Assembly: GCA_963668695.2 (NCBI GenBank)
Contig: CAXXLQ010000004.1
Location: 1,632,001 to 1,696,000 of the forward strand
Reading direction: 5' to 3'
DNA: 64,000 bases
Origin: Vicinamibacteria bacterium
GTDB taxonomy: Bacteria; Acidobacteriota; Vicinamibacteria; Marinacidobacterales; Marinacidobacteraceae
Position 1 is the stretch's first letter. The number at the start of each line of letters is the position of its first letter. Shown piece after piece: positions 1,227 through 61,203 of this stretch. The notes under the pieces are model-generated. The model was not told where the DNA came from and ran no database searches. It worked only from the letters and a program-made list of their open reading frames with translations. A program made the translations under genes and the position numbers.

Positions 1227-1554
1227 GGAGCGCCGGCCGGTTCTCCCGGTAGGGGCCTTCAGACCGGCATCGCGGCCGAAGGCCGCGAAACTCACGTCCT
1301 ATTCACCCCTATTGCACTGACCTGGTCGGGGACGGCGAAACCCACGGCTGGCCATCCCCCGCAGGGGAGCGAAAGCCTCGCCATCGAGCCTCACGGTTAG
1401 CGACAGCGGAAGCGCGCAGTCCCACCACCCTCACGTTGCCGGGCGGGCCGACGCCCGCTTCTCTCTATCCAATTTGTTGAATCTTCCCGACGCCGATCCG
1501 TCACATTGGATAAGATGGTGGATCCCGTTGGTGCTCGCGCCGACCGGGATCAAC

Positions 1555-2561
1555 CAGCCCGTGAACAAAGTGAACCGGCATTCCCGAGCCAAGAGGGAGA
1601 GGGGCCGGGTGTCCCCGTCCCCGATCCCTCTCGCTCCGGGGTCTGCGCGGTGCTGGCGCCCCGCTCCGGAAGCCCGAGCCAGAAGGGATGGGGGTCGGCT
1701 TGCCCCGCCCCCCGTCCCTCTCGCTCCGGGGTCTGCGCGGTGCTGGCGCCCCGCTCCGGAAGCCCGAGTCAAGAGGGAGAGGGGCCGGGTGTCCCCGTCC
1801 TCCATCCCTCGTGCTCCGGGGTCTGCGCGGTGCTGGCGCCCCGCTCCGGAAGCCCGAGCCAGAAGGGATGGGGGTCGGCTATCGCCGCTCTCCATCCCTC
1901 GTGCTCCGGGGTCTGCGCGGTGCTGGCGCCCCGCTCCGGAAGCCCGAGCCAGAAGGGATGGGGGTCGGCTATCGCCGCTCTCCATCCCTCGTGCTCCGGG
2001 GTCTGCGCGGTGCTGGCGCCCCGCTCCGGAAGCCCGAGTCAAGAGGGAGAGGGGCCGGGTGTCCCCGTCCCCGATCCCTCTCGCTCCGGGGTCTGCGCGG
2101 TGCTGGCGCCCCGCTCCGGAAGCCCGAGCCAGAAGGGAGAGGGGCCGGGTGTCCCCGTCCCCGATCCCTCTCGCTCCGGGGTCTGCGCGGTGCTGGCGCC
2201 CCGCTCCGGAAGCCCGAGCCAAGAGGGAGAGGGGCCGGGTGTCCCCGTCCCCGATCCCTCTCGCTCCGGGGTCTGCGCGGTGCTGGCGCCCCGCTCCGGA
2301 AGCCCGAGCCAGAAGGGATGGGGGTCGGCTTGCCCCGCCCCCCGTCCCTTCCGCTCCGGGGTCTCCGCGGTGCTGGCGCCCCGCTCCGGAAGCGAGCGGC
2401 GATGCATCCCGGCTGAACCGCTCTGCTTCGCATCGCTCATCGTTGCGCTTCGGTCGAAATACGTCCGGGCCAGTTCTCCCGGTGGGGGCTCCTCCCTCAC
2501 GCGCCTTGTCAGCCGGGCGCCTCACCGCTCTCGGTGCTCGCCCCACCTTGTCCACGGACTG
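1555..2561. mobile_element. MITE family A copy carrying 9 tandem 90-bp cassettes and one 18-mer
   Basis: Ends CAGCCCGTGAACAAAG / CCTTGTCCACGGACTG. Length 1007 = 179 + 18 + 9x90. Confidence 0.85.
1583..2392. repeat. Tandem array of 9 x 90-bp GC-rich hairpin cassettes (3 sub-variants plus hybrids)
   Basis: Constant GCTCCGGGGTCTGCGCGGTGCTGGCGCCCCGCTCCGGAAGCCCGAG recurs with an exact 90-bp period. Confidence 0.95.
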
Positions 2562-2569
2562 GTGACGGC

Positions 2570-5500
2570 ATGCCTCCTCTCCTCCGCGGCGTCACCCGCT
2601 CCACCCTCGCAGTAGCCGCCACCGCGTTGCTGCTTGCGCTGGCTGCGACGAATGTCGCCCGTCAGGTGGTTTCCGGGGTCATGGACGACGGCGTTCTCTG
2701 GGGCGACGAACTCGGCCGGGTGGTCGCCATGCGGGTGGAAGAAGGCGGGGCGGGGGACCAGGCCGGAATCGAAGTGGGCGACTCTCTGCAGGTCATCACC
2801 GACCGGACCAGCGGGGCGACGATCGAGGTGGACAGCGCTACCGACGTGCGGACGGTGCTCGATGCCGCTTCGCCGGGCTCGCGGCTCCGCTACGTGCTGA
2901 TTCGGGAGGGAGAGCGTCGAGGCATGACTCTCTCCGTCGTTCCTCTCCCGACGGGCAACGTTTCTCTCTATCTGTTCCTGGCGGCGGTGGGCATCTTCGC
3001 CGGCGGAGTCGGCACGTTCGTGTACGCCTTCCGCCGCGGCGCCTCGGCCTCCGCCCACTTCTACGGGCTCTGTCTCCTCTGGCTGCTCGCCTTCTCTTTC
3101 TCGTTCACCGGCGAATTGGATCTATTCGACCACCTCTACTTCTGGCTGGACCGGATCGGGGTGTTGTTCTTCCCGCCGGTCTTCCTTCACTTCGCGCTCA
3201 CCTTCCCGGGCCGCAGCCGGTTCCTCGAGAAGTGGCCCAAAGTGCTGCATTGGGCCTACGCGCCGTCCTTCGCCCTGATGGGGCTGTCGGTGGGCTCCCG
3301 CATCCTCTATTTCTCCCCGTTCAGTCCGGGTGGCTCCGCTATCACCGGCAGCGAGTTTGTCGTCGACCGGCTCGAACCGGTCCTCTGGGCCGTGTACTCC
3401 CTCGCCGCGTTCGTGGCCTTCGTGGACGCCTATCGCAACGCCGAAAGCGTCACCGTCTCGAAGCAACTCAAGTGGATCGTTTGGGGCACCGGGGTCGGAA
3501 TGCTGCCCTTTGCGCTGATCTATGCGGTTCCCTACCTGGGCGGTCTTCCCACGACCCCGGAAATGGAACTCTCTCTCGTCCCGGTGGTCCTGGTGCCGCT
3601 GTCCTTCGCGTACGCCATCGTCAAGTACCGGCTCATGGACGTGGAGGTCCTGTTCAAGCGCGGAATCCTGCTCGCCTCGCTGATGGTCGGTGTCGCCGCC
3701 ATCTTTCTCGCGGCCTTTCTGGTGGGAACCTCCTGGTTCGGGGGCGACGAGCACTCGCTGGTCATCGCCGTCCTGTCGGCCATCGTTGCGGCTCTTGCGG
3801 TTCCCGCCTTCCGCTCCCGGACCGAGCGTTTCATCGACCGGCTGTTCTACCGCGAGCACTACGACTTCCGGCGCGCGCTGGCCCGGCTGGCCGGCGAGAT
3901 GAATTCCCAACTCGACCTGGTGCCGCTGGCGAACCGGCTCGTGGAGCGCATCAGCGAAACCTTCCGGATGCAGCGGGTCGCGCTGCTTACCGCGGTGCAG
4001 GACACCACCGTTCCGGAACTGAAGGTCGTCGCCGCGCACGGCCTCGACGATTCGGAAATGGAGGCTGCGGAGAGGTTCATCAGTTCGGCATCGGTGAGAA
4101 AGCGCCTGAGCGCGGGCGCCATTGCGCGTGCCAGCCACATGCCGGCCCCGGTTCGCGAGGGAGTGTGGGTGCTGAACGCCGTTCCCTGCTTTGCCCGGGG
4201 TGAGGTAGTTGGCGCCTTCCTTCTTGGGGCCACGGTCGACGGCGAGGATCTGTCCTCCGAGGACCTGGACCTGCTACGCACCGTGGCGGCGCAGGCAGCC
4301 ACCGCTCTCGTAAACGCTCGCCTCTACAGCTCGCTCCAGGCCAAGCACGAAGAGGTGGTCGCGCTCCGGGAACAGAGCGAGGACACGATCGAATCGCTCG
4401 CCGCCGGCGTCGTGGTGTTCGACCTCAAGGGCCGCGTCGTCCGCTGGAACCGGTCCATGGAGATCATCTATGGGCGGAGCCGCCACGAGGTTGCTCATTC
4501 CTCTTACGCGGCCGTCTTCCCCAAGAGCCTCCGGCACGCACTCGACGCCGGCCTCGGCGAGGGTTGGCTGGTGCGCAACGAGGGCGGCGGGATCTCACGC
4601 CTCAACCTGAGGGCCGCCGACGGGCGGGACCGGGTAGTGAACGTCAAGGCCGCGCCGTTCATGTCGGGAGGAGGCCAGCGCCACGGAGCGCTCCTCATCT
4701 TTGAGGACATCACCGAGCGGGTGGGGATGGAAAACGAGATGCAGCTCCGGGAGAAGATGAGTTCTCTCGGAGTCTTGGCGGCCGGTGTTGCCCATGAGGT
4801 CAACACGCCGCTCACCGGCATCTCCAGCTTCACGCAGATGCTCCAGGATCAGACCGACCCGAACGACCCCCGGCAGCCGCTCCTCGACAAGATCGAAAAA
4901 CAGACGGAGCGCGCTTCAAAGATCGTGAATGGTTTGCTCAACTTCGCGCGCCATAGCCAAACGAACTTTCAGATCGTGAATCTCAACCGCGTTCTCGGCG
5001 ACGTGCTGTCACTCCTGGACCACCAGTTGAAGAGTTCGCACATCCGGATCCGCAAGGAGTTTGATCCGGCGCTTCCGCCGCTCCGAGGCGACGAAAACAA
5101 GCTGCAACAGGTTTTCGTGAACCTGGCGGTGAACGCCTTTGACGCCATGCCGGCGGGAGGCTGGCTGACGATCACCACCCGGAGCGAGGGAGAGCAGGTG
5201 GTTGCCGAAGTGGCCGACACCGGCGAAGGAATCGCCCCCGAAGACATCCGGCGGATCTACGACCCGTTCTTTTCGACCAGGAAAAAAAGCGGCGGGAATG
5301 GCCTGGGCCTTTCGATCAGCTACGGAATCGTCCAGGAGCACGGCGGCGCCATGGAGGTTGAGAGCGATGTCAGCAGCGGCACCCGCTTCCTGATCCGCTT
5401 CCCCGCGGCGGCCTCCGCGTCTGAACGTCCCGCCGGGGAGGATTCTTCCACGCTGGTTCCGAGAGCTACCGGTTCGCGCGGAGCGGAGATCGGACGATGA
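2570..5500 (+). CDS. Membrane sensor histidine kinase (PDZ-like, multi-TM, GAF, PAS, HisKA, HATPase)
   Basis: H-box AAGVAHEVNTPL, N-box QQVFVNLAVNA, DTGEGI, GNGLGLSIS. Start placed at ATG 2570, just after the MITE end. Confidence 0.92.
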   Translation: MPPLLRGVTRSTLAVAATALLLALAATNVARQVVSGVMDDGVLWGDELGRVVAMRVEEGGAGDQAGIEVGDSLQVITDRTSGATIEVDSATDVRTVLDAASPGSRLRYVLIREGERRGMTLSVVPLPTGNVSLYLFLAAVGIFAGGVGTFVYAFRRGASASAHFYGLCLLWLLAFSFSFTGELDLFDHLYFWLDRIGVLFFPPVFLHFALTFPGRSRFLEKWPKVLHWAYAPSFALMGLSVGSRILYFSPFSPGGSAITGSEFVVDRLEPVLWAVYSLAAFVAFVDAYRNAESVTVSKQLKWIVWGTGVGMLPFALIYAVPYLGGLPTTPEMELSLVPVVLVPLSFAYAIVKYRLMDVEVLFKRGILLASLMVGVAAIFLAAFLVGTSWFGGDEHSLVIAVLSAIVAALAVPAFRSRTERFIDRLFYREHYDFRRALARLAGEMNSQLDLVPLANRLVERISETFRMQRVALLTAVQDTTVPELKVVAAHGLDDSEMEAAERFISSASVRKRLSAGAIARASHMPAPVREGVWVLNAVPCFARGEVVGAFLLGATVDGEDLSSEDLDLLRTVAAQAATALVNARLYSSLQAKHEEVVALREQSEDTIESLAAGVVVFDLKGRVVRWNRSMEIIYGRSRHEVAHSSYAAVFPKSLRHALDAGLGEGWLVRNEGGGISRLNLRAADGRDRVVNVKAAPFMSGGGQRHGALLIFEDITERVGMENEMQLREKMSSLGVLAAGVAHEVNTPLTGISSFTQMLQDQTDPNDPRQPLLDKIEKQTERASKIVNGLLNFARHSQTNFQIVNLNRVLGDVLSLLDHQLKSSHIRIRKEFDPALPPLRGDENKLQQVFVNLAVNAFDAMPAGGWLTITTRSEGEQVVAEVADTGEGIAPEDIRRIYDPFFSTRKKSGGNGLGLSISYGIVQEHGGAMEVESDVSSGTRFLIRFPAAASASERPAGEDSSTLVPRATGSRGAEIGR

Positions 5501-6924
5501 GCCGAAACCGCGGGACCGTCCTCGTGGTGGACGACGAGCAGGTGATGCGGGAAATCCTCGAGGCGCTCCTTCGCCAGGCCGGATACTCGGTGCGCCTGGC
5601 GGAAACCGGCGAAGAGGGGATCCGGATTGTGGACCGCGAGCCCATCGATCTGGCAGTCGTGGATGTGATGCTGCCGGACATCTCCGGGCTGAAGGTGCTC
5701 GAACGGCTCCGGGAGATCGATCCGGAGATCAGCGTAGTGATGCTCACCGCCTTCGCCTCGGTGGAAACCGCCGTGACCGCAATCAAGTGCGGGGCCTTCG
5801 ACTACCTGACGAAGCCGTTCAAGAACGACGAAGTTCTCAACCTCGTCGGCAACGGAGTAAGGCAGCGGCGTCTTGCGCGCGAGAACCGTTCCCTCCGGGA
5901 GCAACTGGTTCGCCGCGAACGCTTCGAGGAGCTGATCGGAAAGTCGCCATGCATGCAGGAGGTGTACGCCCTCATCGAGCAGGTCGCCGGATCCCGAGCC
6001 AACATTCTGGTTACCGGCGAGAGCGGCACCGGCAAGGAACTCGTCGCGAAGGCGATCCATCGCCTCAGTCCGCGCAAGAAGCGGCCGTTCGTCACCGTCC
6101 ATTCCGGGAGCCTCCCGCCCGAACTTCTCGAGAGCAACCTCTTCGGCCATCTCAAGGGCGCGTTCACCGGTGCGGTGGCGCCCAAGAAGGGTCTTTTCGA
6201 GATTGCCGATGGCGGCAGCATCTTCTTCGACGAGATCGGCACCGTGCATGTGGATACCCAGGCGAAGTTGCTGCGGGTGATCCAGGAAAAGGAGTTCATG
6301 AATCTGGGAGGGGTGGAGACCATCAGGGTGGACGTCCGGGTCATCGCCGCCACCAACACGGACCTGAAACGGCTCGCCGAACAGGGCAAGTTCCGTGAGG
6401 ATCTCTACTTCCGGCTCGACGTCATCAACATTCACATCCCGCCGCTTCGGGATCGCCGCGAGGACATCCCGGCGCTCGCCAATCACTTCCTTCGCAAGTA
6501 CGGGGGAGAAAACGGGAAGACCCAGCTTGCGTTCTCGTCCGACGCCATGCAGGTGTTTCTCGACTGCCCGTGGCCGGGGAATGTGAGGCAGCTCGAGAAC
6601 GCCGTGGAGCGCGCGGTGGTGCTGACGCCCGGCAACGATATCGACGCTTCACTCCTGCCGGACGCCGTGAGGACCCGGGTTTCCCGGGCTTCGGTCTCTT
6701 CGGTCCCGCCGCTCGAGGACGGGGTGACCCTCCGCGAGTACATTTCCGAGGTGGAACGGCAGTTGCTCCTCCAAACCCTCGACCGGGTCGGCGGGATTCA
6801 GAAGCGCGCCGCCGAGGTTCTGGGTCTGAAGCCAACCACGCTCAACGAGATGCTCAAGCGCCACGGCATTCGGTTCAGCCGGCGCGCTCCGGAGACCCAC
6901 GGGTCCGTTCTTCGGCAGGTCTAG
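5497..6924 (+). CDS. Sigma54-dependent NtrC-family response regulator
   Basis: Receiver domain (VVDDE, DVMLP), Walker A GESGTGKE, GAFTGA, WPGNVRQLEN, C-terminal Fis HTH. Overlaps the kinase stop (ATGA). Confidence 0.95.
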   Translation: MSRNRGTVLVVDDEQVMREILEALLRQAGYSVRLAETGEEGIRIVDREPIDLAVVDVMLPDISGLKVLERLREIDPEISVVMLTAFASVETAVTAIKCGAFDYLTKPFKNDEVLNLVGNGVRQRRLARENRSLREQLVRRERFEELIGKSPCMQEVYALIEQVAGSRANILVTGESGTGKELVAKAIHRLSPRKKRPFVTVHSGSLPPELLESNLFGHLKGAFTGAVAPKKGLFEIADGGSIFFDEIGTVHVDTQAKLLRVIQEKEFMNLGGVETIRVDVRVIAATNTDLKRLAEQGKFREDLYFRLDVINIHIPPLRDRREDIPALANHFLRKYGGENGKTQLAFSSDAMQVFLDCPWPGNVRQLENAVERAVVLTPGNDIDASLLPDAVRTRVSRASVSSVPPLEDGVTLREYISEVERQLLLQTLDRVGGIQKRAAEVLGLKPTTLNEMLKRHGIRFSRRAPETHGSVLRQV

Positions 6925-7157
6925 CAGCCTGTGGACAAAGTCACGCGGCCCAGTTCTCCCGGTGGGGGCTCGACCGGCGATGCATCCCGGCTGAACCGCG
7001 CCGCTTCGCGACGCTCTGCGTTGCACGTCGGTCGGAATACACTCGGGCCAGTTCTCCCGGTGGGGGCTCCTCCCTCGCGCGCCTTGTCAGCCGGGCGCCT
7101 CACCGCCAGTTCTCCCGGTGGGGGCCTCGGCGCTCACGTCACTTCATCCACAGGCTA
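6925..7157. mobile_element. MITE family A copy with three 18-mer insertions
   Basis: 233 = 179 + 3x18. Flanks CTAG (the regulator stop codon) and CTAA. 18-mers at 6950, 7048, 7106. Confidence 0.88.
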
Positions 7158-7164
7158 CTAACCC

Positions 7165-9549
7165 ATGTTCCCGACCGCAAGAAGGACTGCCGCGGCCCTA
7201 ACAGCCTGTGGAGAAGGTCTGTCCGTGTCCGTCCGCGGCGCAGAGCGCCGCGGGGGAGGGGCGTGGGGAGGGGTTTCCCCTCCCCACCGAAAACGATGGC
7301 GCGGGCCCCCACCGGGAGAACTGGCGCGGAGCGATCCGGGACATCACCCCGTGGGGAAAGCGCCCCGCACGCACGAGAACCGGCAGATTCGGCGCGCCTC
7401 TCGCCTTGGACACCGTGCGGGGTGCTTTTTCTGCGGGCTGCTGCTGCTGGCGAGCCTGCCGGTGATGGCCAGGGCCGCGCAGGAGGAACTCAGCCGCAAC
7501 GAGCAGATCGAACGTCTGCGGGAAGACCACCGCAAGTGGCTCGAACAAGACGTGGCGTACATCATCACCGACCGCGAGGAGGACGTATTCCTCAGCCTCG
7601 AGACCCTCGAAGAGCGGACTCGATTCATCGAGGTCTTCTGGGAAAAACGCGATCCTTACCCGGCGACCCCCGAGAACGAGTTCAAGGACGAGCACTACAG
7701 CCGGATCGAATACGCAAACAAGTACCTCGGCAGGGACACCTTCCGCGAAGGCTGGCGGACGGACCGGGGCCGCTACTACATCCTGCTCGGCGAGCCCCGC
7801 GAGCGGCATGCCTTCGACGGCTACAACGAAGTGGTCTCGAGCGAACTCTGGTTCTACCAGGGCGACGTGTCGAAAGGATTGCCGTCCTTTTTCTATCTCG
7901 TCTTCTTCAAGCGCCACGACATCGGGGAGTACCGCCTCTATCACCCGGTGGTGGACGGGCCGCAGTCGCTGGTTCGAGGCCAGTACACCCAGGGAGGCGG
8001 GCCGCAGGGCAATGTCCAGGCCTACAAGACCCTGCAACGGATTGACGCCGAACTCGCGAACGCCTCCCTCTCCCTGGATCCTTCGGAACCGGGGGACTGG
8101 ACGAGCGGCAGGGCCTCGCTGGCGAGCGACCTGCTGATCGCGCGGGTCGAAGATTCGCCCCGGCGCGCCATCCGCACCGACTACGCGGACGCGTGGCTCC
8201 GTTACCGCGATCGGGTCTCGGCCGACTATTCGTTCAACTTTGTCCCAAGTCGCGGGGTGTTCGGAATCACCGGGGGACCTCTCGGTACTCCCTTTGTTCA
8301 CTACAGCGTCGAGATCGATCCTCAGAACTTCACTCTCGAGACCGACGAGGACCGGACGAAGTTCTACACGACCCTCGATATTTCGGTCGAAGCGGTGAAC
8401 GAGGACGATGTGACGGTGCTGGCGATCGACCGCCCGGCCTATCTGGAGCTCACCAGGACTCAGGTCGAAGGCATTCAGGGTTCGCCGTTCGCGTACCAGG
8501 ACAGCGTGCCGCTACTACCCGGCACGTACGACCTGAGTGTGATCGTTCGAAACCGCGCCGCGGCCCAGTTCACGGTTGCCGAGACCACGATTGACACCAC
8601 GCGTCTGGGCGCCGCGGCTGGTTCGTCCCGAATTGCCGGCATCATCGCCGGGTTCGACGGCACCGATCTGGTGCAGGCGCCGAGCCCCGAAGCGATTCGC
8701 ACGTTTCAGGTCGGAAACGTCCGGATTCAGCCGGCCGCGGACGGCCTCTTCGCCCTCGGGAACACCCTCTACGCCTTCGCGCACGTGATGGAAGCCGGGG
8801 ACGGTCAGCAAATGCGCTTCCAGGTGCTTGCCGATCTCTCCGGAAGTCCGGACGGAGAACCCCTCACCGAGCTGGTGGTGGCGGTTCCCGGCCCGGGAGC
8901 CGTCCTCGGCCGTTTGCCGCTGGATCTTGGGGTCGGCGGAAGCTACTGGCTGCGCGGGCGGCTCGAGGATGAAGCGGGGACCCTGCTCGATCAGCATGAT
9001 CGGCGGATCCAGGTTTCCCCCCGGGCGGGTGTCCCGCGCGCCGGCTTCGTTTTGCGGCGCGGTTTCAACCCGGAAACACCAGGGCTGCTGGCGCTCGTTC
9101 GCGGCGATCAGTACCTGACGCTTTCCCGCTTCGAGGAGGCGCTCCGCGAGTACGAACTCGCGGTGGCCTCCGGGAATCCGCAGTTGCCGGCCGCCCGTTG
9201 GAAGCTCGCCCACGGCTACGTGCGAACCAGTCGGGTGGCCGAAGCAGCAGCCCTGCTCGAGCCTATGGTGGACCAGTTCCCCGAGGTCTTCGAGGTAGCC
9301 AGCGGGATGGGTTTCGTTCGCTACTTCCAGGGCCGCTACGAGGAGAGCGTGGCTCATCTGGAGCACGCCCTCGCACTGCGCACCCCGGGATTCGGGTTGT
9401 TGAACGTCCTCGGAGACGCCTACGCTGAGGTCGGACGGCTCGAGGAGGCGCGCGCCACCTTCGGGCGCTCTCTGGAGTTGAATCCGGAGCAGCCGTTCCT
9501 TCGGGAGCGCCTCGCCGAGATCAGCGCGCCGTCTCCACCTGGCGAGTAG
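7165..9549 (+). CDS. GWxTD domain protein with C-terminal TPRs; signal peptide interrupted in frame by a MITE
   Basis: GWRTDRGRYYILLGEP motif and TPR-like C-terminus. Removing 7201-7440 restores MFPTARRTAAALLLLASLPVMARA-AQE. Confidence 0.88.
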   Translation: MFPTARRTAAALTACGEGLSVSVRGAERRGGGAWGGVSPPHRKRWRGPPPGELARSDPGHHPVGKAPRTHENRQIRRASRLGHRAGCFFCGLLLLASLPVMARAAQEELSRNEQIERLREDHRKWLEQDVAYIITDREEDVFLSLETLEERTRFIEVFWEKRDPYPATPENEFKDEHYSRIEYANKYLGRDTFREGWRTDRGRYYILLGEPRERHAFDGYNEVVSSELWFYQGDVSKGLPSFFYLVFFKRHDIGEYRLYHPVVDGPQSLVRGQYTQGGGPQGNVQAYKTLQRIDAELANASLSLDPSEPGDWTSGRASLASDLLIARVEDSPRRAIRTDYADAWLRYRDRVSADYSFNFVPSRGVFGITGGPLGTPFVHYSVEIDPQNFTLETDEDRTKFYTTLDISVEAVNEDDVTVLAIDRPAYLELTRTQVEGIQGSPFAYQDSVPLLPGTYDLSVIVRNRAAAQFTVAETTIDTTRLGAAAGSSRIAGIIAGFDGTDLVQAPSPEAIRTFQVGNVRIQPAADGLFALGNTLYAFAHVMEAGDGQQMRFQVLADLSGSPDGEPLTELVVAVPGPGAVLGRLPLDLGVGGSYWLRGRLEDEAGTLLDQHDRRIQVSPRAGVPRAGFVLRRGFNPETPGLLALVRGDQYLTLSRFEEALREYELAVASGNPQLPAARWKLAHGYVRTSRVAEAAALLEPMVDQFPEVFEVASGMGFVRYFQGRYEESVAHLEHALALRTPGFGLLNVLGDAYAEVGRLEEARATFGRSLELNPEQPFLRERLAEISAPSPPGE
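7202..7440. mobile_element. MITE family B copy (221-bp core + one 18-mer)
   Basis: Ends CAGCCTGTGG...CTGCGGGCTG. Colinear with the reverse complement of 60182-60604. Confidence 0.8.
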
Positions 9550-9625
9550 CGGATAGTTCGCGTCACCGCCTCCCGCCCTTCCGGCGGGTCACGTCATTCG
9601 TCCGCTGGCGGCATCCGCGGCTGCA

Positions 9626-12463: not shown

Positions 12464-12490
12464 AAAATGGATGCGCCAGGCCGGCGGCGC

Positions 12491-12579
12491 GGCGGAGAGA
12501 GAGGGATTCGAACCCTCGGCGCGGTATCCCGCGCAACTGCTTAGCAGGCAGCCCTGTTCAGCCACTCCAGCACCTCTCC
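12491..12579 (-). tRNA. tRNA-Ser(GCT)
   Basis: GGAGAGGTG start, anticodon arm GCTGC-CT-GCT-AA-GCAGT, long variable arm, GGTTCGAATCC T-loop. Confidence 0.93.
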
Positions 12580-12701
12580 AGCGCCCTCCCAAGGCGAAGG
12601 TTTCACCGCCGGGACAGGGATGGTACACCGGAGCTGTGGCGCGCGCGCCACAGCGGCGTACGGCCCCGAATCCTGCTATCCTCATGCATTCCCGCGACCA
12701 C

Positions 12702-12775
12702 TGGGAAGTCGTCCAATGGCAGGACACACGGCTCTGGACCGTGGAATCGGGGTTCGAGTCCCTGCTTCCCAGCCA
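12702..12775 (+). tRNA. tRNA-Gln(CTG)
   Basis: TGGGAAG acceptor stem, anticodon arm CACGG-CT-CTG-GA-CCGTG, GGTTCGAGTCC, encoded CCA. Confidence 0.93.
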
Positions 12776-13817: not shown

Positions 13818-13902
13818 GGAGGGATGGCCGAGCGGCTTAAGGCGGTGGTCTTGAAAACCACTGACCCGAAAGGGTCCGGGGGTTCGAATCCCTCTCCCTC
13901 CG
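13818..13902 (+). tRNA. tRNA-Ser(TGA)
   Basis: GGAGGGATGGCCGAGCGG start, anticodon arm GTGGT-CT-TGA-AA-ACCAC, long variable arm, GGTTCGAATCC. Confidence 0.93.
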
Positions 13903-14009: not shown

Positions 14010-14420
14010 GGAATCGCAAATCCCTCCGGGATTTGCGATTCGAGCTGTCTTTTTGTGAAAGGGGGGGTGCCCCCCTTTCACACTTTCCCCCCGGTCAGGC
14101 GGGCAGCGAACGGAGTTCGCTGCCATCTGTTTCTTCGCGTTTGGCAGTACGCGTGTGATGACGCAAAGGCAAGGGAACGCCGACCTCCTGGTCGGCACAG
14201 CCCGCCGAAGGCGGGCGGGAGCGCGTACGGCTGATCAGGCAGATGGCGCGTAGACGGGGAAGAACGCGTAGTGCCGATCGGGAAAAAGCGCGGGGACGGC
14301 TTGGAACGCCGACCTCCGGGCAGTTCTCCCGGTGGGGCCCGGCATCGCGCGGGAGCGCGAAACCAGCGCGGATTACGCGGCGCTCTACCGACGTGAGCGT
14401 CGCACCCTCTCACAATCCCG
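14010..14420 (+). repeat. Hairpin-rich dispersed repeat family C
   Basis: Shares TTTTGTGAAAGGGGGG...CCCCTTTCACACTTTCCCCC, GCAGCGAAC..GTTCGCTGC, GGGAACGCCGACCTCC and CGCGCGGGAGCGCGAAACC with 36940-37430 and 23318-23460 (reverse). Confidence 0.75.
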
Positions 14421-21753: not shown

Positions 21754-21797
21754 TCGAGCGCGACCCTGGCCGCAAACGGTCAGGGAAACCCTGTTGG

Positions 21798-21994
21798 CAG
21801 CCGGTGGTGGAACCCGGGTGAGCGCCGAGGCCGGCGAGGCGCCCGGCTGACAAGGCGCGTGAGGGAGGAGCCCCCACCGGGAGGACTGGCCCGGGTGTAT
21901 TTCGACCGAAACGCAACGAAGAGCGGAGCGAAGCGGAGTGGTTCAGCCGGGATGGATCGCCGGTCGAACGCCGCCTGGGTTTCACCACCGGCTG
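21798..21994. mobile_element. MITE family A copy with one 18-mer
   Basis: 197 = 179 + 18. TIRs CAGCCGGTGGTG / CACCACCGGCTG. Confidence 0.88.
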
Positions 21995-22025
21995 CTAAGG
22001 TTGGCCGGTTGCTCGGACGGAGGCG

Positions 22026-23317: not shown

Positions 23318-23460
23318 AATCACCCCTCGGGGTTGGAAGGGCGCGCGGCCCTCACGTCGGCAGATCGCAGCGTCGTCGACGCTGGTTTCGCGCTCCCGCG
23401 CGTGCCGGCCCCCACCGGGAGAACTGGCCAGAGGTCTGGCGTTCCCTTGCCTGCGCGCCA
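23318..23460 (-). repeat. Repeat family C partial copy with 18-mer
   Basis: Reverse complement aligns with 14303-14420. Confidence 0.75.
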
Positions 23461-23481: not shown

Positions 23482-25061
<1,580 letters not shown>

Positions 25062-30848: not shown

Positions 30849-31098
30849 CAGCCGGTGGCGAAACCCGGGCGGCGTTCGCCCGGCGATCCATCCCGGCAAA
30901 ACAGCCTGTAGTGGAACCCGCACGGCGTTCGGCCGGCGATCCATCCCGGCTGAACCGCGTCGCTTCGCGCCGCTCATCGTTACGTTTCGGTCGAAATACA
31001 CGCGGGCCAGTTCTCCCGGTGGGGGCTCCTCCCTCACGCGCCTTGTCAGCCGGGCGCCTCACCGGGCTCGGCGCTCACCCGGGTTCCACCACAGGCTA
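30849..31098. mobile_element. MITE family A copy with a duplicated 53-bp end and one 18-mer
   Basis: 30849-30901 repeats the terminus. 30902-31098 = 197 bp. Flanks CTAA / TTAA. Confidence 0.85.
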
Positions 31099-36942: not shown

Positions 36943-37435
36943 GAATCGCAACTTCCTTGCGCGCCTGCGGCGCGCTGCGGCAAGTTCCGATTCGTAGTTG
37001 TTGTTTTGTGAAGGGGGGGGGCCCCTTTCACACTTTCCCCCCGGACACGCGGGCAGCGAACGAAGTTCGCTGCCGTTGGTTTTTTTCGTTCGGCAATGCG
37101 CCGCTTGCTTTCACGGTACGCGCGCAAGGGAACGCCGACCTCCGGGCTTGCTGTGAAAATGCAGTTGCGCCGAGCCCTCGACAGAGCAGATGGCGCACAG
37201 GCCCGGGAACGCCGGTGTTCACACCGGCACAGCGGCCCGCAGGGCCGCGGCGGCAGAGACCCCAACCGTCGGGATGGCGCCCGTCTCGGCGCGTACCTCT
37301 CGAGGGCAGGATGGCGCGCGACAGCGGAACCCCCACCGGGAGAACTGGGCTGGCCTCCGGCCGGCATCGCGCGGGAGCGCGAAACCTGTGGCGCTCGCGC
37401 CAGGCCCCGCCACGTGAGTGCCACGCCACCTTTTT
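36943..37435 (+). repeat. Repeat family C copy with 18-mer at 37331
   Basis: Colinear blocks with 14010-14420. Confidence 0.75.
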
Positions 37436-37556
37436 CAGCTCCGCCCGCCTACGGCGAGCTACAGCGGTCTTGCTCTCCCGGTAGGGGCTTTCGGATCAGA
37501 CCGCCAGCGCTGCCCGGAGGGCAGCCAAGACCGACGTCGCCGGAGCAGATCCCGGC

Positions 37557-49996: not shown

Positions 49997-50040
49997 AAGC
50001 GCGCAAATTTACTTCGCTGGAGCGCCCGGCGCACCTTTAA

Positions 50041-50818
50041 CAGCCGGTGGTGAAACCCACGTGAGCGCCGAGGCCGGTGAGGCGCCCGGCTGACAAGGCG
50101 CGTGAGGGAGGAATACCGGGTGTATTTCGACCGAAACGCAACGCAGAACGCAGCGAAGCGGAGTGGTGAACAGCTTGTGGTGGAACCCCCGTGAGCGCCG
50201 AGGCCGGCGAGGCCCAGTTCTCCCGGTGGGGCCAGTCCTCCCGGTGGGGGCCCGGTTGACAAGGCGCGTGAGGGAGGAGCCCCCACCGGGAGAACTGGCC
50301 CGGGTGTATTCCGACCGAAACGCAACGATGAGCGGCGCGAAGCGACGCGGTGAACAGCCGGTGGTGGAACCCCCGTGAGCGCCGAGGCCAGTGAGGCCCA
50401 GTTCTCCCGGTGGGGCCAGTCCTCCCGGTGGGGGCCCGGCTGACAAGGCGGGTGAGGGAGGAGCCCCCACCGGGAGAACTGGCCCGGGTGTATTCCGACC
50501 GAAACGCAACGATGAGCGGCGCGAAGCGACGCGGTTCAGCCGGGATGGATCGCCGGCCGAGCCCCCACCGGGAGAACTGGGCCGCGTGGGTTTCATCACC
50601 GGTTGTTTGGCCGGGATGGATCGCCGGCCGAGCCCCCACCGGGAGAACTGGGCCGCGTGGGTTTCATCACCGGTTGTTTGGCCGGGATGGATCGCCGGCC
50701 GAGCCCCCACCGGGAGAACTGGGCCGCGTGGGTTTCATCACCGGTTGTTGGGCCGGGATGGATCGCCGGTCGAGCCCCCACCGGGAGAACTGGGCCGCGT
50801 GGGTTTTGCCACAGGCTG
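50041..50818. mobile_element. Compound MITE A locus: 130-bp + 184-bp partial units + full unit with 3 extra 71-bp ends; ten 18-mers
   Basis: 184 = 130 + 3x18. 464 = 179 + 4x18 + 3x71. The 71-bp period is seen at 50563/50634/50705/50776. Confidence 0.85.
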
Positions 50819-50986
50819 TTCAGGAATGTGGGGCGTTTCCACCCGTGAGAACGCCGCGAAGCGACCAGCAAAAGGCGATGGAAATCGCGCCGGAGCGGCG
50901 CCCCGCAGCCGAAAATGGCGGGTGCTCCATGGCATAGTTCGCGCGCCGCCGGCTCTGGCCCGGAGGGAGAGGAGATTCTTCAGGAT

Positions 50987-51766: not shown

Positions 51767-51910
51767 TAGGGACCGCCGGCCAGTTCTCCCGGTGGGGGCC
51801 TTCAGACCGGCACCGCCCGCCAGCGGCGGGCGAATGCGCTGCTCCTGAACCCGCGACTTGCAGCAGCGAGATCGCGTACTGCCATCGGTCCTGACCGCGG
51901 AGCTGCGCTA

Positions 51911-53362: not shown

Positions 53363-53378
53363 GTTCGCTGGGCCTCCC

Positions 53379-53657: not shown

Positions 53658-53677
53658 GCAGGTCGCGGAGCACAGGA

Positions 53678-53701
53678 GTTATGCGTTACGTAAAGCATAA
53701 C
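53678..53701. promoter_or_regulatory. Palindromic operator upstream of higB
   Basis: GTTATGCGTTACGTAAAGCATAAC, a 24-bp near-perfect AT-rich palindrome 21 bp before the higB start. Confidence 0.65.
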
Positions 53702-53889
53702 ATATCTCGTGACGATGGTTGACTCGATGCCGGTGCATGGTGTCTCTTCATGCGCCGAATTGGACCCTTCGCTCTACTTATCATCCCCAATTGATCCCTC
53801 GCGGAGGCTTCTCTCACCCGTCCACTGGCCGGGACGTGGCACCCGAGTGAGTCTTCCGTTCGCGGCTGGTCGTCAGCGCGCCGCTCTAA

Positions 53890-54068
53890 CAGCCTGTGGT
53901 GAAACCCATGTGAGCGCCGAGGCCGGTGAGGCGCCCGGCTGACAAGGCGCGTGAGGGAGGAATACCGGGTGTATTTCGACCGAAACGCAACGCAGAACGC
54001 AGCGAAGCGGAGTGGTTCAGCCGGGATGGATCGCCGGTCGAACGCCGCGTGGGTTTTGCCACAGGCTG
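53890..54068. mobile_element. MITE family A, empty 179-bp reference copy
   Basis: TIRs CAGCCTGTGG / CCACAGGCTG, flanks CTAA / TTAA, no 18-mer. Confidence 0.9.
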
Positions 54069-54364
54069 TTAACCCGCGCCACCACGTCCCGGACCTGATC
54101 CGCGAATCCCCGCGCGTTTCTCCATCACCTCCGCCTCGTCGAGTGTGGTGATCTCGCCGTCGCGCACCACGGTCCGTCCGTTCACCAGCACCGTCCGGAT
54201 ATCGCTGCCAGGGTCACGTACACGAGGTGGGAATACGGACGGTTGAGCGGGGTCATTCCGGCCCGTCGGGTCTCCACCAGCACGATGTCGGCCATCTTGC
54301 GCACTTCGAGGGAGCCGATGTGGTCCTGCTGGTTGAGCACCCGGGCGCCGCTGATGGTGGCCAT
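54069..54364 (-). pseudogene. Frameshifted duplicate of the 3' end of the amidohydrolase 55775-57202
   Basis: MATISGARVLN..IGSLEV.K.ADIVLVETRRAGMTPL.RPYSHLVYVT, then a frameshift to DIRTVLVNG...DEAEVMEK. Confidence 0.85.
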
Positions 54365-54400
54365 CCGGAACGCGGGACTTTACGTTCCAGCGGGAACGTC

Positions 54401-55483: not shown

Positions 55484-55578
55484 TCGTTCCGTCCTTCTTC
55501 GTCTTGTGTCGCGGATCCCGTGACCCGCACATTGTCTCCCAAGCGAACCCCGCGGTAGAGCCGCACCGGTGGCGTTAA

Positions 55579-55793
55579 CAGCCTGTGGTGAAACTCACGT
55601 GAGCGCCGAGGCCCCCACCGGGAGAACTGGCGGCGAGGCGCCCGGCTGACAAGGCGCGCGAGGGAGAAATACCGAGTGTATTTCGACCGAAGCGCAACGA
55701 TGAGCGACGCATAGCGGCGCGGTTCAGCCGGGATGGATCGCTGGCCGAGCCCCCACCGGGAGAACTGGGCCGCGTCACTCCGTTCGCGGACTG
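55579..55793. mobile_element. MITE family A copy with two 18-mers
   Basis: 215 = 179 + 2x18. Flanks TTAA / TTAA. Confidence 0.85.
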
Positions 55794-57202: not shown

Positions 57203-57259
57203 GGAGCGGTCCTTCGGCGGGTGGCGGGAAACCCTACCGGAAGGGAAGCTGCGTGCGCT

Positions 57260-59134
57260 TCAGGCGGGTTCACTGCGAAAGCGGCCCTTCCGGAGCCGGT
57301 TCATCGCCGCGGCGATCTCGTAGCGGCGGGGACGGGCCAGCCAGCCGGGATGAGTGCCGGCGCGACCCTCGGCGGTGAGCGATTCGAGGCCTGCCTCGTC
57401 GAGCCGGGCTTCGAGGGCGTCGAGCAGTTCGCCGACCGAGAGCCCTGCGAATTGCCGAACGGCGACGGCCACGGCGTACCCGGCGGCCCGGGTCTGGCTC
57501 TCGTCGAAAAGCTGTTCTACCGCCCGGAGGTCCACCTCCTCCTCTCCGTAGAGGAGGAGATCGCGCCGCGTTGCCCGGATGCGCGGCGTTCCCTTACGGC
57601 CGGCCGGGTCAAAGCTCTCGGGCTCCGGATGCCGTACCCGGCCGCCGAAGCTCGCCGCGGCGGCCTCGGGAGACCGCCGGGTCGGATATTGAGCCCCCAC
57701 TTCGCGCGCCAGGGCCGTGACCTCGCGCGGCCGGTAGTCCGCCAACTGGATCACGGTGTCGGCGGCGTCGAAGTAGTCCCCGGAGCCGCCCATCACCAGA
57801 ATGGTCGAGACCCGGTGGCTCTCGTAGAGCTCCCGCACCCGGTCGAGGAGGGCGACGATCGGCTCCGCGTCGCGCTCCACCAGCGCCTGCATCCGGGCAT
57901 CGCGGATCATGAGGTTGGTGGCCGAGGTGTCTTCGTCCATCAGCAGCAGCCGGGAACCCGCCTCCAGCGCCTCGACGATCGAAGCCGCCTGACTGGTGCT
58001 GCCGCTCGCGTTCTCGGTGGTGAACGCCGTGGTCGGCCGTCCTCCGGGCAACTCGCGGATAAACGGACTCACGTCCACGGAGGACACCGCGCGTCCTTCT
58101 TCGGCGCGGATCGTCGTGGCGTCGGTCCGGGTCACGACCCGCTCCCGTCCGTCTCCGGGAATGTGTGGGACCACCGAGCGGGCCAGCGCCTGGAGCAGGG
58201 TGGACTTTCCGTGGAAACCGCCGCCCACGATCAGGGTGACGCCTTCGGGAATTCCCATGCCGGAGATCTCCGGGGGGCCGCTGCCGGAGTGGAGCAGCGG
58301 GAGGCTCACCCGCAGCGAGGCCGGGCTCTCGAAAGCGACGACCCCGTCGCGAAGCGGGCGTTCGCTCGCACCGTGCGCGCGCGGGAGCACCGCGCCGTCG
58401 GCGACGAAGGCCGCCAAGCCCCGGGCACCGAGTTGGGAGCGGAGGTGTTCCTGGTCTTCGACGATGTCCACGAAGGACGGTGCGCCTCCGTCGGGCAGGT
58501 TCCGGAAAACGAGCGCCTCCCGGGCGATCCGGGGGAGCTCGCCGGCCAGCAGGTCGGCGGCCCGCTGTCCCAGGATGCGGCGGCCGGCCGCCGGCAGACC
58601 AACCTCGAGACGGGCCTCTACGGAAGCAGGTTCGGTTCCGTCGCCGAAGATGTGGACCGCAGTGCGCTCCAGCACCTCCTGTCTGCCCGCGTCGACCCGG
58701 ACTACCCCGCTGTTCCCCGACCCGGAGCGATTCCCGGAGCGCGGGATCGCCTGGTCCACGCGGCGCGCCAGGTAGTCGGAGAGCCCGATCCGCCGGACCC
58801 GATTCCGGAAGAGCTCCGGCGGGAACCCCGCCACCCCTCCGTCCACCCGGAGCCGGACGCGCGACGGGGGAGCGAAAGGGTCGCGGGCTACCCGGTCCAC
58901 GAAAACGGTGATCCCGTCCCCGAGGGACCATTGCCCTTCGAGGTCCCGGTAGGCCGGGTATCCGCGTCCGTCGAGACGGCAGCACGCGGCGGCGAGATCG
59001 GACCCGTTCCGGCCGGCGCCGCCGCGCTCTCCGCCGCGGGGGAACGGGCCGGCTCGATACGCGGTGATGGGTTTCTCCTCGGGTGCCGGCCCGACGCCAC
59101 GAGACGGGCGGCGCCCCGGATCGGGCGCGATCAT
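57260..59134 (-). CDS. ABC-ATPase domain-containing protein (ABC_ATPase family)
   Basis: DPFAPPSR, GVTLIVGGGFHGKSTLL, NASGSTSQAA, LMDEDTSATN. Start uncertain. Confidence 0.85.
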   Translation of the reverse strand: MIAPDPGRRPSRGVGPAPEEKPITAYRAGPFPRGGERGGAGRNGSDLAAACCRLDGRGYPAYRDLEGQWSLGDGITVFVDRVARDPFAPPSRVRLRVDGGVAGFPPELFRNRVRRIGLSDYLARRVDQAIPRSGNRSGSGNSGVVRVDAGRQEVLERTAVHIFGDGTEPASVEARLEVGLPAAGRRILGQRAADLLAGELPRIAREALVFRNLPDGGAPSFVDIVEDQEHLRSQLGARGLAAFVADGAVLPRAHGASERPLRDGVVAFESPASLRVSLPLLHSGSGPPEISGMGIPEGVTLIVGGGFHGKSTLLQALARSVVPHIPGDGRERVVTRTDATTIRAEEGRAVSSVDVSPFIRELPGGRPTTAFTTENASGSTSQAASIVEALEAGSRLLLMDEDTSATNLMIRDARMQALVERDAEPIVALLDRVRELYESHRVSTILVMGGSGDYFDAADTVIQLADYRPREVTALAREVGAQYPTRRSPEAAAASFGGRVRHPEPESFDPAGRKGTPRIRATRRDLLLYGEEEVDLRAVEQLFDESQTRAAGYAVAVAVRQFAGLSVGELLDALEARLDEAGLESLTAEGRAGTHPGWLARPRRYEIAAAMNRLRKGRFRSEPA

Positions 59135-59191
59135 AGTGCGGCACCGGAAGCCGGCAGGACCGCGGCGCGGGAAGTACCATGACCGGCAAGC

Positions 59192-60181
59192 ATGGGATCC
59201 GCTGGCGGAGGGCGTTCGTACTGGGCCGATCAGACCGGGGAGCTGCGTTCCCGGCTGGCCGCCGCGGTGCCGCCTGCCGAGTTGCGGCGGCTCCACCGGC
59301 GTCGGCCGTTCCTTCACTTCCTCGTTCTGGGTTGGCAGTTCCTGCTGCTCTTCGGGGCCGGCGCGGTCGCCTGGAGGGCTTCCGAATGGTGGATCTGGAT
59401 TCCGGCCGCCGTGGTTGTCGGGTTTACGGTCTTCAACTTCACCGTGATGCTCCACGAGGTGGTGCACCTGCTGGTCTTTGGCGGCAGCGGACGCTCCGGC
59501 TACCGGGTGCTCCGCCATCTCTACGCGTTCCCGAGCGGGATCTCGGCGACCCAGTTCACCCGCTGGCACCTCGATCACCACGCCCAGCTGGGAGACGCCG
59601 AGGCGGACCCGAAACGGCACTGGCTCTCCCCGAAACGGAACGCGCGCTGGTTCAAGGCGCTCTACCTGACGCCGGCGCTCATCGCCATCTATTTCCGGGC
59701 CGCCCGCCGTGAGTCAGCGGGTTACCCGGAAGAGATCCGGCGCGCCATCGCGCGGGAGCGCACCCTGACGATGGTGGGACACCTGTTGATCCTGGCCGGA
59801 CTGATTGCCGCCGGCGGATTCTTCGCGGCCTCCAAGGCCTACCTGATCCCGGTATTCCTCGTGTTTCCGGTGGCCTTCACCGTGAACCGGCTCGGCCAGC
59901 ACTACGACATCGTGCCCGAGAACCCGGCGCTCTGGGGCAGCGTGCTGCGGCCGTCACGGTTCTGGGACGTGGCGTTCCTGTGGTCGGGATACCACCTCGA
60001 GCACCACTATTTCCCGCGCGTGCCCTTCTACAACCTCCGGGAACTCCATTTCCAGCTCCGGCCGTTCTTCGACGAAATCGGAGCGCAGCCCACGAGCTAC
60101 GGGAGACTCCTCTGGCAGTGGTTCGTCCACAACCGCGCGCCCCACACCGACTGGAGGAGGCCCGCGGAATCGGCCTCCTAG
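59192..60181 (+). CDS. Fatty acid desaturase family protein
   Basis: His boxes HEVVH, HLDHH, HLEHH. TM segments. Confidence 0.88.
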   Translation: MGSAGGGRSYWADQTGELRSRLAAAVPPAELRRLHRRRPFLHFLVLGWQFLLLFGAGAVAWRASEWWIWIPAAVVVGFTVFNFTVMLHEVVHLLVFGGSGRSGYRVLRHLYAFPSGISATQFTRWHLDHHAQLGDAEADPKRHWLSPKRNARWFKALYLTPALIAIYFRAARRESAGYPEEIRRAIARERTLTMVGHLLILAGLIAAGGFFAASKAYLIPVFLVFPVAFTVNRLGQHYDIVPENPALWGSVLRPSRFWDVAFLWSGYHLEHHYFPRVPFYNLRELHFQLRPFFDEIGAQPTSYGRLLWQWFVHNRAPHTDWRRPAESAS

Positions 60182-60604
60182 CAGCCCGTGGTGAAAGCAC
60201 CCCGCACGAGCCCCAGGACGTCCCGCGCGCCGAATCTGGCGGTTTGGGTGCGTGCGGGGCGCTTTCCCCACGGGCAAGCAGCCTGTAGACAGAGTCTCGT
60301 GGCGTTCGAGCGGCGTTGCATCCCGGCTGAACCGCCCCGCTTCGCGTGGCTCATCGTTGCGCTTCGGTCGAAATACACCCGGTATTCCTCCCTCGCGCGC
60401 CTTGTCAGCCGGGCGCCTCGCCCCCACCGGGAGGACTGGCCGCTCTCGGCGCTCACGCCACTCTGTCCACAGGCTGCTGGTGGTGCGAATCGCTGCACGA
60501 TTCGCTCCACCGTCTCTTGTGGGGAGGGGAAACCCCTCCCCACACCCCACCTCCGCGCCGCTACGCGCCGCGAATGGATGCCTTCAGGGTTTCACCACAG
60601 GCTG
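60182..60604. mobile_element. MITE family B with a nested family A copy (60279-60476)
   Basis: 423 = 221 + 198 + 4. Outer flanks CTAG / TTAG. Inner TIRs CAGCCTGTAGAC / GTCCACAGGCTG. Confidence 0.85.
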
Positions 60605-60664
60605 TTAGCGGGTGAGGGCCCGGTTCTCCCGGTGAGGGCGCCCGGCCATGGCAGAATGGGTGTC

Positions 60665-60907
60665 ATGGCCGAGGGAGTCGTGAAGTGGTACGACCGCAAC
60701 CGGGGCGAAGGATTCATCCAGCGCTTCGACGGGCCGGACGTCCACGTGCCGAGCAGCGCCCTGCTGGACCCGGAGCCGGGGTTCCTGATCGAGGGTCAGG
60801 CGGTGGAGTTCGAGCTGCTCAAGATTCCCGGAGGTTTCCGTGCTCGCGGGGTGCGGGTGGTGGCGTCGGGGTTCCGCCGGGGTCCGAAAGCGTCGGCTTC
60901 GCAGTAG
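60665..60907 (+). CDS. Cold-shock domain protein
   Basis: GVVKWYD..RGEGFI...DVHV..SAL...EGQAVEF. Confidence 0.85.
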   Translation: MAEGVVKWYDRNRGEGFIQRFDGPDVHVPSSALLDPEPGFLIEGQAVEFELLKIPGGFRARGVRVVASGFRRGPKASASQ

Positions 60908-60969
60908 GTTCGCCAAGCCCTTTGGGCATGCCGCGCTCAGTTCGTCGGGCGCTGTGGTTTTTCCGTTAA

Positions 60970-61203
60970 CAGCCTGTGGTGGAACCCGGGTGAGCGCCGA
61001 GAGCGGTCAGTCCTCCCGGTGGGGGCGAGGCGCCCGGCTGACAAGGCGCGTGAGGGAGGAGCCCCCACCGGGAGAACTGGCCCGAGTGTATTTCGACCGA
61101 AACGCAACGCCGAGCGCCGCAAAGCGCCAGTTCTCCCGGTGGGGGGGCGGTTCAGGCGGGATGGATCGCCGCTCGAACGCCGCCTGGGTTTCACCACAGG
61201 TTG
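60970..61203. mobile_element. MITE family A copy with three 18-mer-type insertions
   Basis: 234 = 179 + 18 + 18 + 19. Perfect TTAA duplication. Confidence 0.88.

Follow-up and report, generated by a model that had tools for sequence, protein, structure and literature searches.

The nearest described elements to the one reported here are the small dispersed repeats (SDRs) of cyanobacteria, of which SDR4-6 of the Nostocaceae were reportedly presented by Elhai et al. in 2008 (Genome Res 18:1484). The passages on SDRs in PMC5861425 portray them as short mobile elements with preferred insertion sites that have been reported in Nostocaceae only. Here we describe an 18-base unit, CCCCACCGGGAGAACTGG, which was first noticed in a 64,000-base stretch of a Vicinamibacteria genome (positions 1,632,001 to 1,696,000 of contig CAXXLQ010000004.1, as a whole called the window below) and which is subject to massive, recurrent turnover in place. 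The unit behaves like an SDR, in that it is shorter than 30 bases, nested, and present or absent at orthologous places, but it is not a member by sequence or lineage. Both are below 30 bases and of non-coding size, reach a high copy number and lie inside other repeats, whereas sequence and phylum are different. The original prediction, made from the letters of the window, recognised no named element of this kind and had overlooked the cyanobacterial repeats. What the present unit adds to them is a set of fixed sites in a miniature inverted-repeat transposable element (MITE) with terminal inverted repeats, the replacement of 1-3 bases, the independence of the sites, a site-specific variant, and a gradient of occupancy among closed genomes of one genus.

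The mosaic repeats of enterobacteria and Neisseria stand further off. In the mosaic intergenic repeats known as bacterial interspersed mosaic elements (BIMEs) in E. coli, Neisseria intergenic mosaic elements (NIMEs) with the 20-bp dRS3, and pneumococcal BOX elements, in which the number of boxB modules varies, a short module likewise varies in number or position within a larger repeat. There the variation mainly concerns tandem number or the order of an array, whereas our unit toggles at no fewer than 9 fixed positions, in both orientations and with a linked replacement of the flank. The repetitive extragenic palindromic (REP) and REPIN elements, mobilised by RAYT transposases according to the part of PMC3116915 that treats them, resemble the unit as short extragenic repeats with hundreds of copies, inverted pairs of which can form hairpins. 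They are palindromic units of 20-40 bases, and the abstract of PMC3733652 gives a conserved GTAG or CGTC tag as their mark. The unit, however, has neither tag, possesses only an imperfect 4-bp stem and is nested in other repeats; moreover, inverted doublets are not its unit of spread, and mirrored sites are filled nearly independently.

The abundance of the unit is far beyond expectation. In the window it occurs in 22 exact copies versus 0.00 expected from shuffles, and in 30 copies with at most 3 mismatches versus 0.13 expected. The genome-wide count that had been proposed was carried out on the source genome (G000), a metagenome assembly of 4.10 Mb in 4 contigs with 67.5% G+C, which is 91.7% complete with 9.3% contamination. 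It gave 1288 exact copies in 4.1 Mb (one per 3.2 kb) and 1678 copies with at most 3 mismatches, equally divided over the strands, and no strand or replichore bias was seen along the chromosome in 250-kb bins. In full the cassette is ~20 bases long, (G/C/A)C + CCCCACCGGGAGAACTGG, and the unit has hairpin potential in CCGG-GAGAA-CTGG, an imperfect 4-bp stem with one G-T pair. Its halves are rarely apart: CCCCACCGG is followed by the second half in 1550 of 1777 cases (139 in the reverse-sequence control), and the first half stands directly before GAGAACTGG in 1344 of 1415 (control 21). An origin as the footprint or the joined ends of a larger transposon was rejected, since the two halves are nearly always together.

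The surroundings of the unit are themselves repeated. Among 1630 copies with at most 2 mismatches, 14-mer counts of the flanks revealed non-repeated flanks in just 2. The main host is a MITE of 181-182 bp, with TA at both sides and end repeats of ~25 bp beginning ACAGCC(T/G)GTGGTG, and as such it has the terminal inverted repeats and TA flanks of a DDE-type MITE. It is predicted to fold into a long hairpin and is represented by 633 cores in the 4.1 Mb of G000; most members of the genus have far fewer copies. Among the DDE_3 and IS110 loci of G000, none has the MITE end repeats expected of an autonomous parent; one DDE_3 gene has a MITE beside it. The repeat families A and C of the original prediction are real, but they are halves of this one MITE (the left two thirds and the right third, respectively). 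The other host, 'B', resembles REPs and is a double hairpin in which a GC-rich hairpin is followed by GCCGGTC-TGAA-GACCGGC; it holds further sites. In genomes with few units, most of these lie in family B. Matches to the arm and loop of its second hairpin (at most 2 mismatches) are found in the window at 1257, 51800, 37217, 42835, 61357 and 62674 on the minus strand and at 5683, 16846, 41189, 48264 and 49595 on the plus strand. An alignment of 632 MITE copies with the units masked, in which sites were called by regular expressions and BLAST alignments through the repeats, places the units at fixed consensus columns and orientations (a slash marks the point of insertion):

Column 52, plus orientation, unnamed site GAGGC/CGG, 7 units
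Column 54, minus orientation, site s1, 197 units
Column 61, minus orientation, site s2, 368 units
Column 92, plus orientation, site s3, 320 units
Column 138, minus orientation, site s5, 60 units
Column 144, minus orientation, unnamed site, 9 units
Column 156, plus orientation, site C2, 3 units
Column 162, plus orientation, unnamed site, 5 units
Column 172, plus orientation, site C1, 178 units

The six positions in A, two in C and one in B that had been proposed are in this way replaced by at least 9 fixed sites in one MITE and by further sites in hairpin B. At site s2, 356 copies have no unit, 81 have one and 135 have two, and the 381 full MITE copies carry from 0 to 6 units in 78, 62, 74, 79, 59, 25 and 4 cases.

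Turnover in place was followed in 400 kb each (~10% of the genome) of syntenic DNA from three relatives, G001, G004 and G008, whose aligned DNA is ~95%, ~91% and ~88% identical to that of G000. Thirty-nine alignment gaps touch a unit, and many of these represent near-identical orthologous repeat copies that differ only by the cassette. Where orthologous copies differ among G000, G001 and G004, the replacement of the flank is the same as among paralogues. A census of contig C4 of G000 (C4:1,465,000-1,860,000) comprised 288 site instances, 62 of which were comparable with G001; 10 differ, and only 8 filled ones are common to the two genomes. In one copy the two genomes even disagree at a pair of sites, C4:1663015 and 1663053, and do so in opposite directions. 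Among the few cases that could be polarised by an outgroup, both gains and apparent losses are present. The repeated gain in place at many repeat copies, which had been supposed from the window, is borne out by this orthologous comparison. With respect to G001, the same contig has two synteny breaks, one of them an inversion, at ~833,000 to 986,000 and at 1,034,782 to 1,715,631.

A closer inspection of the junctions showed that the inserted entity is usually best described as a patch of ~20-21 bases that replaces 1-3 bases. On the 5' side of the unit the flank logo reads G (87%) and C (87%), on the 3' side C/G, then C (92%), then C (78%). Between a filled and an empty allele the difference in length is exactly 18 bases, at some sites 19, and exact 'empty joins' of the two 10-base flanks are essentially lacking for most contexts. 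The individual junctions are as follows:

Site s3: empty GGAGGA-ATA-CCGG, filled GGAGGA-GC[unit]C-CCGG
Site C1: empty CGA-AC-GCCG, filled CGA-GC[unit]-GCCG
Site s1 and B: empty one base, filled GC[unit], net +19
Site s5: empty GC, filled CC[unit]
Site s2, single unit: empty GC, filled AC[unit]
Site s2, pair: empty GC, filled GC[U'][unit], where U' is the variant A13G

A clean insertion is seen solely at targets whose own last two bases are GC or CC, as in GAGGC/CGG. The filled and empty pairs of the original prediction are real and lie 18 (or 19) bases apart, but most of them are replacements and not clean insertions. The changes of adjacent bases that it had recorded (AT to GC, AC to GC) do accompany the unit, and the flank logo is in line with its view that there is neither a target duplication nor a terminal inverted repeat; without these two features the unit is indeed no DDE-type MITE. 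ACCGG occurs in several targets (s1, s3 and B) as well as in the unit itself. A target motif common to the empty sites was not found.

The states of the sites are nearly independent of one another and are independent of MITE subfamily. For s1 and s2, only 7 bases apart, r2 is 0.002 (table 240/140/116/80); it is 0.045 for s2 and s3, 0.01 for s1 and C1, and 0.106 for s3 and C1, and all combinations of fill states are present at near-equilibrium frequencies. The state of s3 is tightly associated with the 1-3 adjacent bases (V = 0.98-0.99), less so at 4 bases (0.36) and hardly at 5 (0.10), and towards single-nucleotide polymorphisms (SNPs) at least 6 bases away the mean r2 of fill state is 0.007-0.023. 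Subfamily haplotypes, by contrast, do span the sites, columns 29-36, 81 and 114 being linked at r2 0.5-0.96. Since the state is independent of SNPs that are themselves linked across sites, amplification from a few filled masters is excluded. These data bear on the view that nothing but subfamily history is involved, either through a few master MITEs that were filled once and then amplified or through a filled ancestor that suffered deletions. Such a history would suit the single clade origin of the filled s3 allele (see below) and the higher MITE copy number in the same clade. Considering, in addition to the equilibrium of combinations and the independence from subfamily SNPs, that orthologous copies differ in state, that outgroups hold the empty form and that deletion cannot restore ATA from GC..C, we regard it as highly improbable.

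The origin of the s3 allele can be placed in the phylogeny. Every one of the 16 genus members has the empty allele, with 4 to 196 exact matches, whereas the filled allele occurs solely in G000, G001, G004 and G008 (196, 94, 95 and 48 exact matches), with no match in the other 24 genomes of the family that were searched. The empty state is therefore ancestral, and the filled s3 allele arose once, in the clade of these four genomes, and is spreading there. Its occupancy, by exact matches, is 50% in G000, 46% in G001, 41% in G004 and 23% in G008; the 400-kb samples rank the genomes in the same way at s3, C1 and s2, whereas s1 and s5 depart from this ranking. The opposite polarity, with the filled MITE as the ancestral form, had also been considered at the outset; the outgroup genomes hold the host MITE almost only in its empty form.

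In our reading, the spread of the unit is not transposition. Ectopic gene conversion, template switching and quasipalindrome correction are general mechanisms that act among dispersed repeats. They share with the present case a non-reciprocal, templated copying between homologous repeats, in which no target duplication is made and no dedicated transposase is needed, but the tract is here ~20-30 bases, with sharp reproducible ends and an apparent bias toward gain. The explanation that we prefer, and to which we give an even chance of being right, is a gain-biased, very-short-patch copying templated by paralogous repeat copies. The unit would then be one allele at fixed sites in two host repeats, the 181-bp TA-flanked MITE and the REP-like double hairpin. 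The filled allele of each site may have arisen in a rare event, in which a unit elsewhere was probably copied under the guidance of microhomology, a proposal suggested by the ACCGG that several targets share with the unit. From there the allele could spread between copies through very short, non-reciprocal repair on a template, either template switching or short-patch conversion over ~20-30 bases, with other copies of the same repeat as donors, nearby ones being preferred, and with a net bias toward gain. The repair pathway, the gain bias and the origin of new sites are what we infer.

That same-site paralogues serve as templates is indicated by four observations: the site-specific variant, the flank signature of each site, the single clade origin of filled s3, and the sharing of state between neighbours. 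The variant U' makes up 84 of 143 first units of tandem pairs at s2, 47 of 193 units at s1 and 13 of 120 in B, versus 2 of 320 at s3 and none of 337 at C1, of 92 single units at s2 and of 63 at s5; a second variant (..CTGC) is found mostly in B. The flank signature is fixed for each site and is present on every filled allele. Neighbouring copies less than 400 bases apart have the same state in a fraction of 0.69-0.73 versus 0.50-0.55 expected, and at 400-3000 bases the fraction for s1 is 0.68 versus 0.55 expected (n=128), so that sharing above expectation extends up to ~3 kb. Of the three mechanisms that the original prediction had offered, homology-directed patching fits the variant, the s3 origin and the neighbour sharing best, whereas genes for a reverse transcriptase or for an HUH/RAYT-type strand transfer were not found in G000 and G004. 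Quasipalindrome copying from the mirrored arm at s3 was not supported either, as the mirrored s2 would give U', which is nearly absent at s3.

Several findings weigh against copying between paralogues, and most of these speak for a true ultra-small mobile element of the SDR kind. In that case a dedicated activity would write a product of 20-21 bases, from one or a few templates, at hairpin places defined by structure, and would replace 1-3 bases in doing so. The patch limits are very sharp, a point in favour of such a writer; linkage is lost 5-6 bases from the patch, so that the copied tracts would be unusually short. The 'GC' 5' flank is common to all sites, unrelated ones included, which means that the originating events had reproducible boundaries that random template switching does not predict. 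The flanks of switched orthologues have no consistent excess of differences that would betray co-conversion (means per 30 bases 4.7 vs 2.15, 1.89 vs 2.48 and 1.6 vs 5.07, all with small n). The unit is moreover ~10 times more uniform than its host, with a per-base identity of 0.996-0.998 versus 0.95-0.97 in the same copies and with 94-96% versus 43-58% exact 18-base windows, for which a fixed template or selection on the unit is the simpler account. The exact 18-mer is common to at least 5 genera, and is kept while its flanks diverge. Reversibility is weakly shown, because the clear losses are confined to s1, where a plain deletion of 19 bases also suffices. That gains exceed losses, that occupancy climbs within one clade and that the halves of the unit hardly ever stand alone would equally suit a dedicated writer. 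Copies in unique DNA are nevertheless essentially absent (the 2 of 1630 mentioned above), the empty sites are devoid of a common target motif, the site-specific U' and ..CTGC speak against a single template, and neither strand nor replichore is favoured. We consider such an element possible, though doubtful.

The search for a responsible enzyme bears on the same alternative. Y1_Tnp (PF01797), the domain of RAYT or IS200-type transposases, gave no match in G000 and G004, which sets the unit apart from the REP/REPIN-RAYT systems. Weak partial matches (33-44 bits) are present in 13 of 15 other genomes of the genus and are unrelated to the number of units. From IS200/IS605 elements the unit differs in that its empty sites share no target, 1-3 bases are replaced, G000 has no Y1_Tnp and there is no strand bias. 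RVT_1 (PF00078) was not matched in G000, G004 or G008, in contrast to what writing by a diversity-generating retroelement or a retron-like reverse transcriptase would require; G001 has one match, on a small contig, and 2 of 16 genomes of the genus were matched overall. G000 further contains a single gene of the IS110 family, a single weak match to Cas1 and three or four DDE_3 loci, none of which is linked to the unit. A source locus with the unit beside a reverse transcriptase, RAYT/HUH, IS110 or Cas1-like gene, as the original prediction had envisaged, was accordingly not encountered in G000. On the other side, an enzyme gene could be missing from this assembly on account of its incompleteness and contamination, a consideration that tells against copying by ordinary repair. 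A dedicated machinery that writes a ~20-base cassette and was activated in one sponge-associated clade of Vicinamibacteria is, in our estimation, only tentatively to be entertained.

The 18-mer could also be a functional signal that is kept by selection or molecular drive, such as an uptake-type sequence, a protein-binding site or a module that lengthens hairpins, and this as an overlay on any route of copying. The density of about one copy per 3.2 kb, the equality of the strands, the conservation across genera and the uniformity relative to the host would agree with this. Moreover, units at mirrored sites (s1/C1 and s2/s3) pair in the predicted DNA folds of natural MITE copies and lower the predicted hairpin energy from ~-55 to ~-90 kcal/mol. 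Yet the mirrored sites are barely correlated in state, as the r2 values of 0.01 and 0.045 given earlier indicate, and filling does not raise the predicted stability of hairpin B. An Rfam scan of the window found no family that matches the repeats; only three tRNAs reached the threshold (genes at 12493-12579, minus strand; 12702-12772, plus strand; 13818-13902, plus strand). DNA uptake sequences (DUS/USS) are scattered through genes and intergenic DNA alike. The unit is unlike them in that 1628 of 1630 copies lie within other repeats. The marks of a REP and the distribution of an uptake sequence, for both of which the original prediction had left room, are missing. All in all we think a functional signal unlikely.

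The copies of the unit in the window are those that had been listed in advance, with 30 copies of at most 3 mismatches at the same coordinates. A further degenerate copy at 37470 can be discerned by eye as ...GCTCTCCCGGTAGGGG..., but exceeds 3 mismatches. As had been judged by eye, none lies in native coding sequence: all 30 have a repeat or intergenic context, and the doubtful cases at 7307, 60620 and 37331 are non-coding by domain position and synteny. The copies are:

1237..1254, minus strand, unit with 2 mismatches (CCCTACCGGGAGAACCGG), in REP-like hairpin B
2470..2487, minus strand, unit at MITE site s3
6950..6967, minus strand, unit at MITE site C1
7048..7065, minus strand, unit at MITE site s3
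7106..7123, minus strand, unit, clean insertion at the rare MITE site GAGGC/CGG, consensus column 52
7307..7324, plus strand, unit outside the main sites, in a ~520-bp repeat block absent from G001
14320..14337, minus strand, unit with 1 mismatch (..CTGC), in a B-type repeat
21872..21889, plus strand, variant U' (A13G) at site s3, which seldom has U' (2/320)
23410..23427, plus strand, unit in a B-type repeat
24924..24941, plus strand, unit at MITE site s5 (ACCGCCC/CGCTT)
31007..31024, minus strand, unit at MITE site s3
37331..37348, plus strand, unit in an intergenic low-copy repeat between two genes
50214..50231, minus strand, unit, last of a tandem pair at site s2
50232..50249, minus strand, variant U', first of a tandem pair at site s2
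50281..50298, plus strand, unit at site s3
50398..50415, minus strand, unit, last of a tandem pair at site s2
50416..50433, minus strand, variant U', first of a tandem pair at site s2
50465..50482, plus strand, unit at site s3
50563..50580, plus strand, unit at site C1, copy 1 of the 71-bp tandem
50634..50651, plus strand, unit at site C1, copy 2 of the 71-bp tandem
50705..50722, plus strand, unit at site C1, copy 3 of the 71-bp tandem
50776..50793, plus strand, unit at site C1, copy 4 of the 71-bp tandem
51780..51797, minus strand, unit in REP-like hairpin B
55613..55630, plus strand, unit at the rare MITE site GAGGC/CGG, column 52
55751..55768, plus strand, unit at site C1
60422..60439, plus strand, variant U' at site s1
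60620..60637, minus strand, degenerate unit with 2 mismatches, next to the end of a MITE and upstream of a cold-shock gene
61007..61024, minus strand, unit variant with 2 mismatches, U' type, at site s1
61063..61080, plus strand, unit at site s3
61127..61144, minus strand, unit at site s5

The host elements in the window that carry or lack them include:

21797..21995, plus strand, full host MITE with one unit, 199 bp
50040..50819, plus strand, array in which three MITE left halves, one of them empty and two filled, precede four right halves of 71 bp
53889..54069, plus strand, full host MITE of 181 bp without units, the empty 53890 copy of the original prediction, with end repeats at 53889 and 54069 and its core at 53939
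60969..61204, plus strand, full host MITE with three units, 236 bp

In the array, four head-to-tail copies of the MITE's right third follow one another at a period of 71 bp (50535-50819), each with one unit, and the three left parts are directly upstream. In the region of 60620-60637 and 60671-60860, the degenerate unit and a MITE end are located ~30-50 bases upstream of the coding region of a cold-shock domain, and likely sit in the leader of that gene.

The distribution of the exact 18-mer is confined in taxonomic terms. It is present in 21 of 41 related genomes sampled: all 15 other genomes of the genus carry it (5 to 631 copies), as do 5 of 9 further genomes of the family, whereas none of 16 genomes from two other families of the order does. 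A scan of one genome per species returned matches titled as metagenome-assembled Acidobacteria, Vicinamibacteria or 'Candidatus Marinacidobacterium', and elsewhere four single matches, three of which look like chance matches in genes. The fourth, at ~5380 on the minus strand of contig L044 in a gammaproteobacterial bin, has the unit in the same REP-like context and represents either mis-binning or transfer. In another genus of the family (L013, L014, L028, L039 and L053), the 13-base core CCGGGAGAACTGG is also found alone, directly after a full unit; there, the sister variant CCCTACCGGGAGAACCGG occupies site C1 in the same genome. The runs in which the locus was found include ones labelled sponge metagenome. 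In the contigs of 4 short-read runs from 4 studies, which break within the repeats, the word depth of the repeat bins exceeds that of the unique flanks by a factor of ~30 to 3000. An artefact of adapters or assembly, the check on which had been proposed from the start, was rejected in view of the relatives that carry the 18-mer and of this depth. The literature searched on Marinacidobacterium or on MITEs of sponge acidobacterial symbionts contained no description of the element. Overall, the observation made from the window is real and, considering the turnover in place, stronger than it was put, but it does not concern a clean insertion of 18 bases, and almost no copy lies outside repeats.

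The multiplication of repeats whose size is far below what encoding or binding a classical transposase would take has been unexplained since the cyanobacterial cases. The present data set offers one cassette, at least 9 fixed sites per MITE and hundreds of independent on/off states per genome, and since near-complete related genomes range in occupancy from none to half, rates, polarity and tract length are directly measurable and a search for genes is feasible. If a dedicated machinery were true, the unit would represent the smallest class of mobile DNA, of the same kind as the unexplained cyanobacterial SDRs, and genomes with 0% to 50% occupancy would let the responsible gene be found by comparison. 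If, on the other hand, ordinary repair is the cause, very-short-patch copying between paralogues can remodel hundreds of loci within ~5% divergence, which bears on the evolution of repeat families and of their regulatory or terminator hairpins.

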